Source of the DNA: a virus
Lineage: Duplodnaviria; Heunggongvirae; Uroviricota; Caudoviricetes
DNA: 5,042 bases
Reading direction: 5' to 3' (one strand)
Virus record (IMG/VR): IMGVR_UViG_2563366822_000006
A program made the translations under genes and the position numbers. This document shows positions 1 through 5,042 of the stretch, piece after piece (within the stretch, counting starts at the first letter, position 1; every line of letters begins with the position of its first letter). Below the pieces are notes generated by a model. That model was not told the DNA's origin. It made no database searches and saw only the letters and a list, made by a program, of their open reading frames with translations.

Positions 1-185
1 GCGCTGAAATTTCTTTTTTTCATTGGAGCACCTGTGTTGTTCTGAGGTGAGCATATCACCTCTGTTCAGGTGGCCAAATTCAGTGTGCCACTTCAGGGAT
101 TATTATCGGGTGCACTGATGCTGTATCGACAAATTATCATGACCGTACATCATATTACTCCGATAAAGCAATAGAGACACAGTAT

Positions 186-482
186 GTGAGTTCATCTGAA
201 CGTACTTCTGATGTTAGTGAGGATATCCGTCTGTATGCCCATCAAATCAAGAGCGCCATCGAAAAACAGTTCGGGGATGCGAGTAAGTATTCAGGAAAAG
301 AGTGTACACTGAGAATGCATATGGCCCCGAATGGCCTTCTACTGGAGGTTAAAAGAGAAAGTGGAGACCTCGATTTATGTCGTGAAGCGATGAATGCGAT
401 AAAGAATGCTGATATACCTGCCCCCCCTTCGCCGGAAGTATATAAAGTATTTCAAAATGGGGTGCTGGATTTTAAACCCTGA
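186..482 (+). CDS. TolA C-terminal domain (domain III)-like protein, no recognisable signal peptide; possibly a decayed or frameshifted paralog
   Basis: The 98-aa translation aligns by eye to E. coli TolA domain III (YAxQIKSAIE...GKxCTLR...APxGxLL...GDxxLC...PPSxxVYxVFxNxxLDFKP, ending in the same DFKP C-terminus) and keeps both cysteines of the TolAIII disulfide. The start is GTG (186) with only a weak Shine-Dalgarno sequence, and the in-frame upstream stretch (51-185) has no start codon. Confidence 0.6.
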   Translation: MSSSERTSDVSEDIRLYAHQIKSAIEKQFGDASKYSGKECTLRMHMAPNGLLLEVKRESGDLDLCREAMNAIKNADIPAPPSPEVYKVFQNGVLDFKP

Positions 483-524
483 TATTTATTGTTTTGTAAT
501 AAACGGTTTCGGCTTAGGTTTGTT

Positions 525-553
525 CTGACACAACTACGGCACTGAGCTAAATT
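525..553 (+). promoter_or_regulatory. Candidate sigma70 promoter for the TolA-like lipoprotein gene (-35 CTGACA, 17-bp spacer, -10 TAAATT)
   Basis: Hexamers read directly from the sequence about 80 bp upstream of the GTG at 633; the match to consensus is partial. Confidence 0.25.
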
Positions 554-632
554 TAGCGGATAGTCAGCTCTGAGCCAGTGGCGGACGTAACAACTACTAT
601 TGCTGAGATTTTAATGGATTGAGGAGCAAGAA

Positions 633-1028
633 GTGGGATTAAAGAAAATCGTTATGTTGACTTTTGGGGTCGGTTTTGTTGCGGGATGCACACCTTTACA
701 CCCTTCAGATTGCCACAAAACTACTGCTACAGGTAGTTGCAGTTCAGGACGCTGGGATGATCAGGATGAATGGGGGGCGCAAGCGCGGGGAATCAGAGCT
801 GCAATTAATGCCAAACTTGATGAGCCGCATAACTGGAAAGGGAAAAAATGCAGGTTGCATATGGAATTCTCTCAGGATGGCACGGCGTTAAAAATATCTA
901 CCAGTAACGGTGATAAAGCCTATTGCGAAGCGATAAAGTCCGCAGCTCATAAAGCCAAATTTCCGGCCTTCAACAATCCGGAAGTCTACAGAGATTTTCA
1001 GAAATCTGGCTTTGACATGCGAGGTTAG
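633..1028 (+). CDS. Predicted lipoprotein carrying a TolA domain III-like fold
   Basis: GTG start 6 nt after the Shine-Dalgarno sequence GAGGAG (621-626). The N-terminus MGLKKIVMLTFGVGFVAGC has a basic n-region, a hydrophobic h-region and the lipobox VAGC. The C-terminal ~80 aa conserve the TolAIII pattern (GKKCRL...DG.L...GD..YCEA...AK.P....PEVY.DF) including the two-cysteine pair. Confidence 0.7.
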   Translation: MGLKKIVMLTFGVGFVAGCTPLHPSDCHKTTATGSCSSGRWDDQDEWGAQARGIRAAINAKLDEPHNWKGKKCRLHMEFSQDGTALKISTSNGDKAYCEAIKSAAHKAKFPAFNNPEVYRDFQKSGFDMRG

Positions 1029-1153
1029 CTCTTCAATTACTATATCTCATTCATAGCAAACTGACAGATTTGATGATGTTCTATATACGAAACCTGTGAT
1101 GTCAAGTCTGAGCTAATACAAATAAACATAATATCAGAGAAATACATTTTATT

Positions 1154-1177
1154 AGCTCGCTACGGCGAGCTTTTTAT
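1154..1177 (+). terminator. Rho-independent terminator (stem AGCTCGC / GCGAGCT, loop TACG, then TTTTTAT)
   Basis: Perfect 7-bp GC-rich inverted repeat followed directly by a T-tract, between the TolA-like lipoprotein gene and the holin gene. It could be a moron terminator or a tR'-like late terminator. Confidence 0.6.
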
Positions 1178-1279
1178 ATTGCATCGTCTCCAGCATATAT
1201 ATCAATTAAGGCTCTGATTGATGTGTCTGGAAGCCTACACATAATAACTATGCCATCCGTTCCGTGCGGAGGTGAGGCT

Positions 1280-1495
1280 ATGAAATCCATGGACAAAATT
1301 TCAACAGGCATTGCCTACGGCACCTCCGCAGGCAGTGCTGGCTACTGGTTTTTACAGCTGCTCGATAAAGTCACGCCCTCACAGTGGGCAGCAATAGGTG
1401 TGCTGGGTAGCCTGGTATTTGGCCTGCTGACGTACCTGACAAATCTTTATTTCAAGATTAAAGAAGACAGGCGTAAGGCTGCGAGAGGAGAGTAA
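1280..1495 (+). CDS. S: Class II holin, S21-type pinholin with dual-start motif (antiholin/holin)
   Basis: The 71-aa product [71 protein letters not shown] is near-identical to my recollection of phage 21 S21 / E. coli EssD-EssQ. The Met1-Lys2-Ser3-Met4 dual start is present, with the Shine-Dalgarno sequence GGAGGTGAGG just upstream. The ORF-track start at 1223 is an in-frame artefactual extension. Confidence 0.9.
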
Positions 1496-1499
1496 TCCA

Positions 1500-1807
1500 A
1501 TGACTCAAGACTATGAACTGGTTGTGAAAGGAGTCCGTAATTTTGAGAATAAAGTTACGGTAACTGTAGCCTTACAGGACAAAGAACGCTTTGACGGTGA
1601 AATTTTTGGCCTGGATGTCGCCATGGACCGTGTTGAAGGAGCTGCGCTGGAGTTTTATGAGGCAGCAGCCAGAATGAGCGTCCGGCAAGTCTTCCTGGAA
1701 GTAGCAGAAAAATTGTCAGAAAAAGTTGAGTCTTATCTGCAGCATCAGTACTCCTTTAAGATTGAAAATCCTGCCAATAAGCACGAGCGTCCTCATCATA
1801 AATATCT

Positions 1808-1811
<4 letters not shown>
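1500..1811 (+). CDS. ydfR: YdfR-like (DUF1327) prophage protein of unknown function, inside the lysis cassette
   Basis: 103-aa ORF sitting between holin and endolysin, the same size and position as ydfR in the E. coli Qin prophage. Its ATG lies 4 nt after the holin stop and its stop overlaps the endolysin start (ATGA). Confidence 0.75.
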
Positions 1812-2835
<1,024 letters not shown>

Positions 2836-3195
2836 ATTAATATTAAATCGGATTATTTTTAGCGCTGAATGTGAAATTTAAATAAAAAGGACTCTTCCAT
2901 GAGTCAAAATCCTTGAAATCTTAAGGGTAAGATAAAAGGTCATTAGACAGAATGACACGTTTTATTAATAAATAAAGCTATTGTTTCATTCGTGTGTTTT
3001 TCTTTACAAAAGTAATCCTTGCTATGGTTGGTTAATCATGCGTTAATGGTGTTCTGGTTTGTTACAAAATTATCTGAAGCAGTCATTGTTATAATTTTAT
3101 TATTTGTACCTCTTGAGATTTCCTTGTTGGTTTTTCTCTCTGATATTTTTTTTCGGACCATTCTGCCCAAGGGCTAACTTCTTCAAAAGGTAATA
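2836..3195 (+). promoter_or_regulatory. AT-rich promoter and long 5' leader region of the cold-shock gene (CspA-family-type leader)
   Basis: A 360-bp AT-rich non-coding stretch with no ORF longer than a few codons. CspA-family genes characteristically have long 5' UTRs; a -10-like GTTAAT (3042-3047) lies 17 bp downstream of TTGCTA (3019-3024). Exact promoter and transcription start are not determinable from sequence alone. Confidence 0.35.
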
Positions 3196-3411
3196 ATGAT
3201 GTCTAACAAAATGACTGGTTTAGTGAAATGGTTTAACCCTGAAAAAGGTTTTGGTTTCATCACGCCGAAAGATGGTAGCAAAGATGTGTTTGTGCATTTC
3301 TCAGCTATTCAGAGCAACGATTTCAAAACGTTAACTGAGAATCAGGAAGTCGAATTTGGTATTGAGAACGGACCTAAAGGCCCTGCAGCTGTTCATGTAG
3401 TGGCACTTTGA
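3196..3411 (+). CDS. cspI: Cold-shock protein, CspA family (CspI-like, prophage-encoded)
   Basis: Translation [71 protein letters not shown] carries the cold-shock-domain RNP1 (KGFGFI) and RNP2 (VFVHF) motifs. It differs from my recollection of CspA, CspB and CspG and matches CspI. Shine-Dalgarno AAGG is upstream; the true start may be the second ATG (3199). Confidence 0.9.
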
Positions 3412-3615
3412 GGTAGAAAATATTACAAACCATATTCACTTTAGATGCCCGTGTTGCCATGGTTCTCAGTATAGAACATCATCTTTTGATGTTTCTGACA
3501 GAAATCCTTTCGGGGCAAAATGTATCTTTTGTAAATCAATGATGATTACATTTGATAATATTTCACAATACTTAAATGTTAGCCATCTGTCGTTAGATTT
3601 AAGAAAGTGAAAATG

Positions 3616-3638
3616 AAGGCTCCTTCGGGAGCTTTTTT
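3616..3638 (+). terminator. Rho-independent terminator (stem GGCTCC / GGAGC(T), UUCG tetraloop, T6 tract)
   Basis: Hairpin plus T-tract read directly. It lies about 200 bp after the cspI stop and about 45 bp before the next ORF. An A-rich 5' flank makes it potentially bidirectional. Confidence 0.55.
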
Positions 3639-3682
3639 GCTTAGTGTCTAGTCGATGGATACTCACATATTACGGTAACATT

Positions 3683-3913
3683 ATGAAAAAAATAATAGTT
3701 TTTTTTAACTCTGAACCAGCAATGGTAGTGCCAGTGATGACCGGAGTTAACACCATCATGCGTGAATATCCAAATGGCGAAACAACACACCTCACTGTAA
3801 TGGCTGCAGGGTTTCCATCTCTGACCGGAGATCATAAAGTCATTTATGTAGCAGCGGATCGACATGTAACTTCAGAAGAAATTCTGGAAGCAGCAATGAG
3901 ACTCTTGAATTGA
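3683..3913 (+). CDS. Small hypothetical prophage protein (possibly YnfN-like); start codon uncertain
   Basis: ORF in the position ynfN occupies in the Qin prophage (cspI - ynfN - gnsB). In-frame ATGs at 3683, 3722, 3737 and 3758; the 3758 start gives a 51-aa product with a GGAG about 11 nt upstream. I cannot recall a reference sequence, so there is no direct homology support. Confidence 0.45.
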   Translation: MKKIIVFFNSEPAMVVPVMTGVNTIMREYPNGETTHLTVMAAGFPSLTGDHKVIYVAADRHVTSEEILEAAMRLLN

Positions 3914-4030
3914 TTTGATTCTAATGCATTGATAATAAATGATAATCATCTTTATCTGTTTGTGTGAAATTTAGACCGTCGTATGTTGATTATTGCGATG
4001 TTTCATCTTATCTTTTATACGTTTGCTCCA

Positions 4031-4036
4031 TATAAT
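4031..4036 (+). promoter_or_regulatory. Candidate -10 hexamer (TATAAT) upstream of the gnsB-like gene
   Basis: Perfect consensus -10 about 50 bp before the start codon. No good -35 at 16-18 bp spacing; a TTGACA at 4036-4041 overlaps it. Confidence 0.25.
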
Positions 4037-4082
4037 TGACACTACTGTGTACCAGGACAGTCATAACAGACTAAAAGAGGAA

Positions 4083-4259
4083 ATGATGAACATTGAAGAG
4101 TTAAAAACAAAAACAGAAGCAGATATTTCTGAATATATAACAAAAAAAATCATTGAGCTTAAGAAAAAGACCGGGAAAGAAGTTACCAGTATCCAGTTTA
4201 CTGCACGGGAAAAAATGACTGGTCTTGAAAGCTATGATATCAAGATTGATTTAATCTAG
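4083..4259 (+). CDS. gnsB: GnsA/GnsB-family protein
   Basis: Product MMNIEELKTKTEADISEYITKKIIELKKKTGKEVTSIQFTAREKMTGLESYDIKIDLI matches my recollection of the 57-aa GnsA/GnsB family (MNIEELK...TGKEV...FTAREKMTGLESYD.KI). Strong Shine-Dalgarno AAGAGGA before ATG 4083. The ORF-track start at 3993 is an artefactual extension. Confidence 0.85.
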   Translation: MMNIEELKTKTEADISEYITKKIIELKKKTGKEVTSIQFTAREKMTGLESYDIKIDLI

Positions 4260-4324
4260 CATGTTTATAGTATTAGCATCAATTTCTCATCAGATGCTAT
4301 TCAACAATACAAATTACCCATAAA

Positions 4325-4347
4325 CCTCGTTTTTACGGGGTTTTGTT
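4325..4347 (+). terminator. Putative intrinsic terminator (stem CCTCG / CGGGG with one G-U pair, loop TTTTTA, then TTTTGTT)
   Basis: Short hairpin followed by a T-tract about 65 bp downstream of the gnsB-like stop. The stem is short, so confidence is low. Confidence 0.4.
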
Positions 4348-4554
4348 ATATTTAAACATTACCGAATAGATATAAATCTCGATTGTCGATGGTATTGGTT
4401 GTGTGACAATACCTAGTCTTTCCGGTATGCCTGAAGAGAATACAAACGACAGATTATGTAAGGGAAACGCGCTGAAACTTTCACTCTTTCATGCTGAGTG
4501 ATTTGACGTTATATTTTTAGCCGCAAGTGAAGAGCAAACGAATGGAGCGACAAA

Positions 4555-4761
4555 ATGCATAAAGATCAATACACTGATGCCCCCTCCCAGGAGCAGGTTC
4601 GTGTAAAAACTATGCTTAATAGCACCATTTCGATGGGTTACCCGGATGTTGTAATTGCATGTATAGAACATCAAGTATCTCTGGAAGCATTCAGGGCAAT
4701 TGAGGCCGCGTTAGTAAAGCACGATAAGAATACGAAGGATTATTCCTTGGTGGTTGACTGA
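4555..4761 (+). CDS. Hypothetical small prophage protein (possibly YdfO/DUF1398-like by position; unverified)
   Basis: 68-aa ORF with Shine-Dalgarno GGAG 8 nt before the ATG, in the position ydfO occupies after gnsB in Qin-like prophages. I cannot confirm homology from memory. Confidence 0.45.
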
Positions 4762-4855
4762 TCACCATAACTGCTAACCATTCTGACCATTTCACAATGT
4801 GTAAGTTCACAGAGATATTGCAATTGCCTCCGGATAAGTAAGGGGAGATTGCACT

Positions 4856-5023
4856 ATGCAAATGCAGCATCTGATGGTTGGCTATCCTAAGTACTACCAA
4901 ACGGCCGATTATGCGTTGAGGCTTTCAGTGATGGCTGATATAGCAACAATGAAGTGGTCAACAAAAACTGGCCACCGAGTTAGAGTTTTTCCAGTATCGA
5001 TTTTCCGATTCGTTTGGGGGTAA
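4856..5023 (+). CDS. Hypothetical small ORF (55 aa); may be a gene remnant
   Basis: ATG preceded by Shine-Dalgarno AAGGGGA (4840-4846), ending at TAA 5021-5023. It is absent from the ORF track (below the length cut-off) and shares a weak GYP-centred motif with the preceding ORF. Confidence 0.25.
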   Translation: MQMQHLMVGYPKYYQTADYALRLSVMADIATMKWSTKTGHRVRVFPVSIFRFVWG

Positions 5024-5042
5024 TCCACCGTTATATTCGTGC

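Follow-up and report, generated by a model that had tools for sequence, protein, structure and literature searches.

Gene Content and Conservation of the cspI–gnsB Block

The window analysed here, which means the whole stretch of 5042 bases from IMG/VR record IMGVR_UViG_2563366822_000006, covers a late-gene region of a lambdoid, Qin-type Escherichia coli phage, and the element in question is a block at positions 2836–4347 that carries the cold-shock gene cspI, the small genes ynfQ (also ymcF) and ynfN, a remnant of ynfR, and the Gns-family gene gnsB. Many E. coli genomes carry the same DNA at 100% identity, and RefSeq lists its genes there as cspI, ymcF(ynfQ), ynfN and gnsB. The base that follows the stop codon of rzpQ is 2836, and the terminator of gnsB ends just before 4347. 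Between these limits the G+C content is 0.343, compared with 0.476 in the preceding lysis cassette (1280–2835), and it is 0.303 in the rzpQ–cspI intergenic region and 0.310 in gnsB. The locus is very probably a moron block of Qin-type lambdoid prophages, cspI-ynfQ-(ynfR)-ynfN-gnsB, which occupies an optional slot between the spanin and packaging genes. It bears the marks of such an element, namely an optional place in the late region, absence from a close relative, deviant G+C content, and a predicted promoter and terminators of its own.

An earlier interpretation made from the DNA letters alone (the sequence-only reading) had described a turn to AT-rich sequence directly after the lysis cassette, a CspA-family cold-shock gene with a leader of about 360 bp, and a Gns-family gene following it. 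The turn in composition was placed accurately, and the cold-shock gene is confirmed. The long leader was right only as a non-coding interval of 363 bp between rzpQ and cspI, of which ~145 nt (~3054–3198) make up the transcribed 5′ untranslated region (UTR). As well, the Gns-family gene is present, but it does not directly follow cspI; the gap of 674 bp between them holds ynfQ/ymcF, the ynfR remnant, an intrinsic terminator and ynfN. The two genes and the remnant had been missed; the RefSeq annotation of the identical DNA in E. coli S88 and the Qin map of K-12 both show extra genes between cspI and gnsB.

The block was found in 2151 of 5426 complete E. coli genomes, with a coverage of at least 80% in 2099 of these. 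It is also carried by the isolated phages mEp460_ev081 and Tritos, and all seven phage records with any substantial part of the block carry all of it; the related phage mEp460 is without it, as expected for optional cargo. In addition, loci were retrieved through their Gns protein instead of DNA identity, which yielded 15 from species-representative genomes and 80 from viral contigs (95 together). A csp gene and a ymcF-like gene stand upstream of gns on the same strand in 94 of the 95, the remaining locus being cut by the end of its contig. Seven Citrobacter loci (81–88% Gns identity) belong to this set, one of them without a recognisable middle gene, as do the cspG-ymcF-ymcE-gnsA loci of three further Escherichia species (61–63% Gns identity) and the copy of K-12 itself. 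The csp, ymcF-like and gns genes are constant, and the middle position is filled by ynfN, by ymcE or by no gene. Both the Gns and the YnfN family seem to be limited to Escherichia and Citrobacter. Given the kinship among the 95 loci, the synteny rests on roughly four independent lineages. This pattern of gene order supports a co-inherited cassette of csp, a ymcF-like gene, a variable gene and gns, and not random cargo.

Table 1. Features of the 5042-base window, with positions counted from its first base (SD, Shine–Dalgarno sequence; ORF, open reading frame).
Feature	Position	Strand	Details
TolA-C-terminal-domain-like ORF	186–482		98 aa; PF06519, 8e-24
TolA-C-terminal-domain-like ORF	633–1028		131 aa; predicted lipoprotein, lipobox VAGC; PF06519, 1e-14
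P21-type holin	1280–1495		
ydfR	1500–1811		
Lysozyme	1808–2341		
rzpQ, DUF2514 spanin-like	2338–2835		
AT-rich region upstream of cspI promoter	2836–3018	+	Non-coding; GC ~0.30; outside mapped 5′ UTR
Putative cspI promoter	3019–3047	+	−35 TTGCTA 3019–3024; 17-bp spacer; extended −10 TG-c-GTTAAT 3039–3047
cspI 5′ UTR, predicted cold-responsive RNA thermometer/leader	3054–3198	+	~145 nt; SD AAGG 3187–3190
cspI, CspA-family cold-shock protein (RNA chaperone)	3199–3411	+	70 aa
ynfQ/ymcF-family CxxC zinc-ribbon-like protein	3422–3610	+	62 aa; ATT start
ynfR remnant (MKAPSGAFLLSV)	3613–3651	+	12 codons vs. 21 in K-12; TAT → TAG
Intrinsic terminator-like hairpin	3615–3640	+	9-bp stem 3615–3636 (including GGCUCC/GGAGCU); loop UUCG; then U-run
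ynfN	3683–3913	+	Intact; 76 aa
TATAAT hexamer, possible gnsB −10	4031–4036	+	50 nt upstream of gnsB; putative
gnsB, Gns-family protein	4086–4259	+	57 aa
Intrinsic terminator after gnsB	4322–4352 (4322–4343 in a narrower delimitation)	+	9-bp stem and T-rich tail; 3′ boundary of the block
ybcW-like ORF (DLP12-type ybcW)	4555–4761		

The cspI Gene

The product of cspI matches PF00313 over residues 5–69 of 70 (1.6e-31; 108 bits against a cutoff of 27) and contains the motifs RNP1 (KGFGFI, residues 16–21) and RNP2 (VFVHF, residues 30–34) as defined previously (PMC6719143). It is identical to K-12 CspI at 70 of 70 residues, with identities of 55/70 to CspG and 49/68 to CspB, and this identity together with the Qin synteny assigns the gene, on sequence grounds, as an orthologue of cspI specifically, the name that RefSeq also gives to 3199–3411. 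An additional in-frame ATG that K-12 cspI does not have is present at 3196.

For the cspI gene of K-12, cold induction and control through the leader have been reported (Wang 1999, as cited in PMC13271884 and PMC6719143). Its mRNA was found by reverse-transcription PCR to be very low in exponential phase at 37 °C and up at 15 °C (PMC12562117), and CspI stimulates the transcription of ribosomal RNA in vitro at 15 °C (PMC12562117). Moreover, cspA/cspI double and cspA/cspE/cspI triple deletions grow more poorly at 15 °C (PMC12562117).

Predicted Promoter, Leader and RNA Thermometer of cspI

The promoter of cspI was placed by homology, since alignment with the K-12 regions shows two blocks, TTGCT and ATGCGTTAAT (the extended −10), that are invariant upstream of cspI, cspG and cspB. 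A generic sigma-70 scan called neither this promoter nor one for gnsB; the former was missed because its −10 element is without an A at position 2. From the geometry of the promoter, transcription would begin near 3054; counting back from 3199 by the 145 bases published for the cspI 5′ UTR leads to the same position, the corresponding lengths being 159 for cspA, 160 for cspB and 155 for cspG (PMC6719143). The ~218 bp before the start (2836–3053) are AT-rich and comprise the promoter and an upstream part, which differs from the K-12 rzpQ–cspI region by scattered substitutions only and includes a small inverted repeat at 2890–2905 with a T-run on the minus strand. According to a review, cspI has a putative Rut (Rho-utilisation) site "upstream of promoter" (PMC12360218); the sole candidate region for such a site is 2836–3018, which has a G-over-C skew.

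The leader matches the cspA thermoregulator of Rfam (RF01766) at 3041–3457 along the full model (1–428), with a score of 110.1 bits (gathering score, 78) and an E value of 2.2e-28. Positions 3054–3288 fold with a minimum free energy (MFE) of −56.9 kcal/mol (z −2.45 against shuffled controls) into a long stem between the 5′ part of the UTR and the beginning of the coding region; the Shine–Dalgarno sequence and the AUG are mostly paired. For K-12, DMS-MaPseq has revealed that the leaders of cspI, cspG and cspB change at 10 °C into a shorter stem-loop with a shifted register, a change reported to depend on folding at low temperature (PMC13271884), and the computed fold of the present leader agrees with the conformation published there for 37 °C. 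The UTR of this allele differs from that of K-12 cspI at three positions. Two ORFs within the leader, 3019–3177 (+) and 3036–3170 (−), were judged spurious, since both lie over the conserved promoter and UTR and neither is annotated in RefSeq. The weak Rfam matches to STnc350 (E 0.97) and sR19 (E 0.14), which lie far under the gathering scores, were put down to chance.

The Genes between cspI and gnsB

YnfQ matches PF23641 (YmcF-like) with 6.2e-34 and shares 58 of 62 residues with K-12 YnfQ and 43 of 62 with YmcF. Its ATT start codon lies 10 nt past the cspI stop codon, which the Shine–Dalgarno sequence GAGGT overlaps, and it was because of this start that the gene did not appear in the mechanical ORF list. 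The ATT and a (G/A)AGGT sequence overlapping the csp stop are kept in 13 of 13 distinct variants, including Citrobacter and the cspG locus, and no alternative ATG, GTG or TTG start for ynfQ/ymcF was found among these variants. Such conservation suggests that a weak start is maintained, possibly for regulation. Folding found no hairpin between cspI and ynfQ (z +1.37), and ynfQ is probably co-transcribed with cspI.

The small ynfR ORF that follows overlaps a terminator hairpin and is flagged in RefSeq as "too short". Among the related loci, the same truncated form occurs in 48 and 21-aa forms in 36; for K-12, the full-length YnfR-SPA has been reported to be strongly cold-induced (PMC6001520). 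The hairpin itself (−12.4 kcal/mol, z −2.44), which a general scan reported on the minus strand, probably ends the cspI-ynfQ transcript, though in a leaky manner.

The ynfN gene downstream is intact. Across the shared part, its product is identical to K-12 YnfN at 48 of 51 residues; in K-12 (extracted locus 5955–6110), a T8 run near codon 7 is shortened to T7, and the resulting frameshift leaves a 51-aa C-terminal part. The 76-aa form is present in 70 of the 78 related loci with the anchor sequence, and the gene is frameshifted in the other 8. Homologues of YnfN fall into 52 protein clusters, all of Escherichia or Citrobacter where named, and YnfN has no match in Pfam or NCBIfam. An AlphaFold2 (AF2) model with a mean predicted local distance difference test (pLDDT) score of 88.5 has five strands and a C-terminal helix, and it found no significant neighbour in the PDB (best E 0.18, template-modelling (TM) score <0.36) or in BFVD, where the best hit was an uncharacterised protein (E 0.012, TM 0.46; not significant). 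Since the reading frame that K-12 has lost is intact here, the 76-aa protein is a better template for work on YnfN function.

The gnsB Gene

GnsB covers the complete profile of PF08178 (positions 1–54 of 54; 2.1e-33; score 114.5 bits, cutoff 27), and among solved structures it hits 4xo1 and 4xo2, both of GnsA (E 8e-20). It is identical to K-12 GnsB at 53 of 57 residues (four differ) and to GnsA at 36 of 57 (63%). The gene is separated from ynfN by 172 bp. A TATAAT hexamer in this gap is conserved in K-12 and has no good −35 element, and gnsB has a good Shine–Dalgarno sequence. The terminator behind the gene (−11.0 kcal/mol, z −2.62) is also conserved in K-12. With a possible −10 element, a Shine–Dalgarno sequence and a terminator of its own, and an expression below the fivefold threshold in the Tritos lysogen discussed below, gnsB was treated as separate, and it is probably a short transcription unit by itself.

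In multicopy, K-12 gnsB is reported to raise unsaturated fatty acids and to suppress fabA6(Ts) and a cold-sensitive secG null mutation (Sugai 2001, as cited in bioRxiv 10.1101/2024.03.27.586906), and it also rescues a relA fadR strain at 25 °C (bioRxiv 10.1101/2024.03.27.586906). Overexpression of gnsA or gnsB raises persister numbers 10- to 10^4-fold and lowers ATP (bioRxiv 10.1101/310961). The functional evidence for gnsB is all from overexpression.

Expression in Lysogens and Proposed Mode of Action

The block is probably divided into transcription units by its two terminator-like hairpins. In strain LF82, which is lysogenic for the Tritos prophage, cspI is expressed 93-fold and ynfN 27-fold above the prophage background, and both are highly transcribed in overnight LB culture, for which no cold shift was reported (PMC9928086); the Tritos allele is 91.5% identical to the present block. 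In addition, the expression profiles of cspI and ynfN across growth phases are near-identical (PMC7406224). Together with the cold induction of YnfR-SPA, these levels and profiles suggest a cspI-ynfQ transcript that reads partly through into ynfN.

On these grounds the block may work as follows, the steps on cspI being those published for the K-12 and Tritos alleles. In the repressed prophage, cspI would be driven by a cspA-type promoter of its own. At 37 °C, the ~145-nt UTR and the start of the coding region would fold into a long stem-loop in which the ribosome-binding site and the start codon are buried, and at ~10–15 °C a shorter, register-shifted structure would permit translation, so CspI would build up as an RNA chaperone after a cold shift and back up CspA and CspE. 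From the same mRNA, ynfQ would be translated through its ATT start 10 nt past the cspI stop, no terminator lying between, and the leaky terminator at 3615–3640 would pass some transcription into ynfN. The gnsB gene would probably be read as a separate short unit from the TATAAT at 4031 to the terminator at 4322, and GnsB, judging from its overexpression, might enrich the membrane in unsaturated fatty acids. In lytic growth, the Q-antiterminated late transcript would presumably run through the whole block as well. The block appears to be inherited as a unit, with cspG-ymcF-ymcE-gnsA as its chromosomal paralogue.

Weighing of the Evidence and Alternative Explanations

Several observations weigh against the interpretation of the block as a cold-related moron. 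Equilibrium folding with ViennaRNA (MFE and ensemble) gave the same structure at 10 °C as at 37 °C, with the Shine–Dalgarno sequence ~80% paired at both, and did not reproduce the published switch. The published evidence concerns the K-12 and Tritos alleles, and the present leader is set apart from that of K-12 by three substitutions in the UTR and by the ATG at 3196. A single cspI deletion has a marginal effect on growth at 15 °C (PMC12562117), owing to the redundancy of Csp proteins, and the importance of cspI extends to long-term stationary phase at 37 °C (PMC7406224), so cold is perhaps neither the sole nor the main selective context. The promoter of gnsB is weakly defined, the generic scan being silent on it, and gnsB is not among the Tritos genes expressed more than 5-fold above the prophage background (PMC9928086). 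Literature searches found no relevant report of cold induction of gnsA or gnsB, and in the accessible literature no report was found of cold induction of ynfQ. Moreover, most of the 95 Gns-anchored loci are closely related E. coli prophages.

The proposals of the sequence-only reading on function can be judged against this background. Its idea of a lysogenic-conversion module agrees with the transcription of the Tritos allele in a lysogen and with the lack of the block in mEp460, and its view that the module is selected and not random cargo is in line with the synteny in 94 of 95 loci and the same order at cspG-gnsA. The description of gnsB as a multicopy suppressor connected with membrane lipids and secretion corresponds to the phenotypes cited in bioRxiv 10.1101/2024.03.27.586906. 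The pairing of two cold functions holds for cspI, through its published induction and its thermometer, but not to the same degree for gnsB, the cold role of which comes down to multicopy suppression. As for the contrary outcome that had been named, no cold induction and no phenotype on deletion, the weak effect of the single cspI deletion goes part of the way towards it.

An alternative that we regard as possible, if tentatively, is a general stress or stationary-phase fitness cassette, whose cold inducibility is merely inherited from the CspA-type leader. It would fit the finding that cspI, ynfN and cspB are among the few top-expressed genes in long-term stationary phase at 37 °C, where a cspI knockout is outcompeted (PMC7406224), the high levels of cspI and ynfN in the LF82 overnight culture (PMC9928086), the rise of gnsA and gnsB when cultures leave log phase (bioRxiv 10.1101/310961) and the small effect of the single cspI deletion at 15 °C (PMC12562117). 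However, the leader matches RF01766 and is nearly the same as the K-12 cspI leader, a bona fide cold-responsive thermometer (PMC13271884), cspI mRNA is very low in exponential phase at 37 °C and higher at 15 °C (PMC12562117), and the phenotypes of multicopy gnsB are specific to low temperature or membrane fluidity (bioRxiv 10.1101/2024.03.27.586906); the two views are not mutually exclusive. It is much less probable that the genes are random cargo, with Csp and Gns as unrelated passengers that stand together through a single recent ancestor of the region. The majority of the retrieved loci are indeed near-identical E. coli prophages, and the confinement of Gns and YnfN to Escherichia and Citrobacter implies a shallow time depth, yet the order csp, ymcF-like gene, middle gene, gns persists at identities of 61–63% for Gns and 77–79% for Csp, in a prophage late region as well as at a non-prophage chromosomal site (beside yccM and torS), and despite the exchange of the middle gene (ynfN, ymcE or none).

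The names given to the Gns family point to another explanation, in which gnsB is the toxin of a prophage-stabilising toxin–antitoxin pair, ynfN (or ynfR) the antitoxin, and the adjacency of cspI incidental. PF08178 is called "GnsA/GnsB toxin" in Pfam, RefSeq uses the label "addiction module toxin", ymcE-gnsA has been listed as a type II toxin–antitoxin system of E. coli (PMC8484670), and a homologue of that toxin is present here, GnsB being 63% identical to GnsA; the increase in persisters and decrease in ATP on overexpression (bioRxiv 10.1101/310961) would also suit a toxin. We nevertheless hold this to be very unlikely. No YmcE-like sequence was found in the window by tblastn and pairwise comparison, and YnfN and YnfR, considered as equivalents of YmcE, showed no similarity to it in pairwise comparison. 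The 172 bp and the −10-like hexamer between ynfN and gnsB differ from the 11-nt overlap of ymcE and gnsA, gnsB is intact in the K-12-type alleles (8 loci) in which ynfN is frameshifted, one Citrobacter locus has gns without a recognisable middle gene, and multicopy gnsB is tolerated and rescues growth at 25–30 °C (bioRxiv 10.1101/2024.03.27.586906).

The moron interpretation could be extended to a single mobile, cold-gated cassette of csp, ymcF-like gene, middle gene and gns travelling between lambdoid prophages and the chromosome. In such a cassette, the Csp thermometer would set the levels of the downstream small proteins, the AUU-started zinc-ribbon protein YnfQ and the orphan-fold YnfN, and the exchangeable middle gene would tune or neutralise the action of Gns on membrane lipids. 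We consider this doubtful. If it were true, the phage would deliver a coordinated cold-acclimation package for RNA and membrane instead of two independent genes, and the block, if it proved to work as a single cold-gated unit, would neatly exemplify how phages can carry adaptation to the environment outside the host in E. coli. The essentials of the moron itself are already annotated or published, that is, the genes in thousands of genomes, the cold induction and thermometer of cspI, and the lipid phenotypes of gnsB. The additions made here are modest and consist in a conserved four-gene cassette shared by inducible phages, cryptic prophages and a chromosomal site, in an allele whose 76-aa YnfN is intact, and in the finding that the "toxin" label of Gns does not fit this locus.

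Neighbouring Genes in the Window

Across 96–4801, the window is 99.9% identical to Escherichia phage mEp460_ev081, and the match ends at both window ends (1–95 and 4802–5042 lie outside it), which suggests that the ends adjoin mosaic recombination joints. The two ORFs with TolA-like domains lie between the genes for the Q antiterminator and the holin, where K-12 Qin, S88 and Tritos have cspB, cspF and ynfU; by prediction from their domains, a phage TolA-domain decoy could plausibly disturb Tol-dependent colicins or filamentous phages. Within rzpQ, an embedded ORF with a lipobox (LTSC) at 2489–2785, in the +1 frame, corresponds to the o-spanin gene rzoQ, which is annotated inside rzpQ in K-12 too and is a usual lambdoid feature.

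Comparison with Known Systems

The closest known relative of the block is the K-12 cryptic prophage Qin (essQ-ydfR-rrrQ-rzpQ-cspI-ynfQ-ynfR-ynfN-gnsB, b1556–b1550), in which gene order and orientation are identical to the window. Beyond cspI, the columns of the alignment are on average 93% identical, and the promoter, the UTR and both terminators are conserved. The window differs from Qin in its ynfN (76 aa vs. 51) and ynfR (12 codons vs. 21), the extra ATG at 3196 and a 36-bp insertion after gnsB. On the downstream side, the block is followed by the ybcW-like ORF in the window and by ydfO, on the opposite strand, in Qin, whereas upstream of the holin gene the TolA-C-like ORFs stand in place of cspB, cspF and ynfU.

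The chromosomal locus cspG-ymcF-ymcE-gnsA of K-12 (b0990–b4517) shares the same order, with a csp gene, a 10-nt gap, an ATT-started CxxC protein, a middle gene and gns, as well as the promoter blocks. In contrast to the window, it lies outside annotated prophages and is a tight operon of overlapping genes; the gene in its middle, ymcE, has no relationship to ynfN or ynfR, and its cspG UTR of 155 nt includes a 13-nt segment that is deleted in cspI. With the RF01766/CspA-family leaders in general, the cspI leader has in common a long 5′ UTR, a cold-box region, an extended −10 promoter and UTR–coding region pairing that masks the ribosome-binding site. It differs from them in its length of 145 nt, as against 159 for cspA, and in a sequence that diverges from the cspB and cspG UTRs (PMC13271884), and the 3′ terminator segment of RF01766 is without a convincing counterpart here because ynfQ follows directly.

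As a moron, the block can be compared with lambda bor and with the sitABCD, cspB and cspI morons of the LF82 prophages, which are likewise AT-rich inserts in the late region of lambdoid phages with their own promoter and terminators. Like these, it lies between lysis and packaging genes and, in the case of the Tritos allele, is transcribed in the lysogen. A classical moron is a single gene, whereas the present block has four to five, organised in at least two transcription units.

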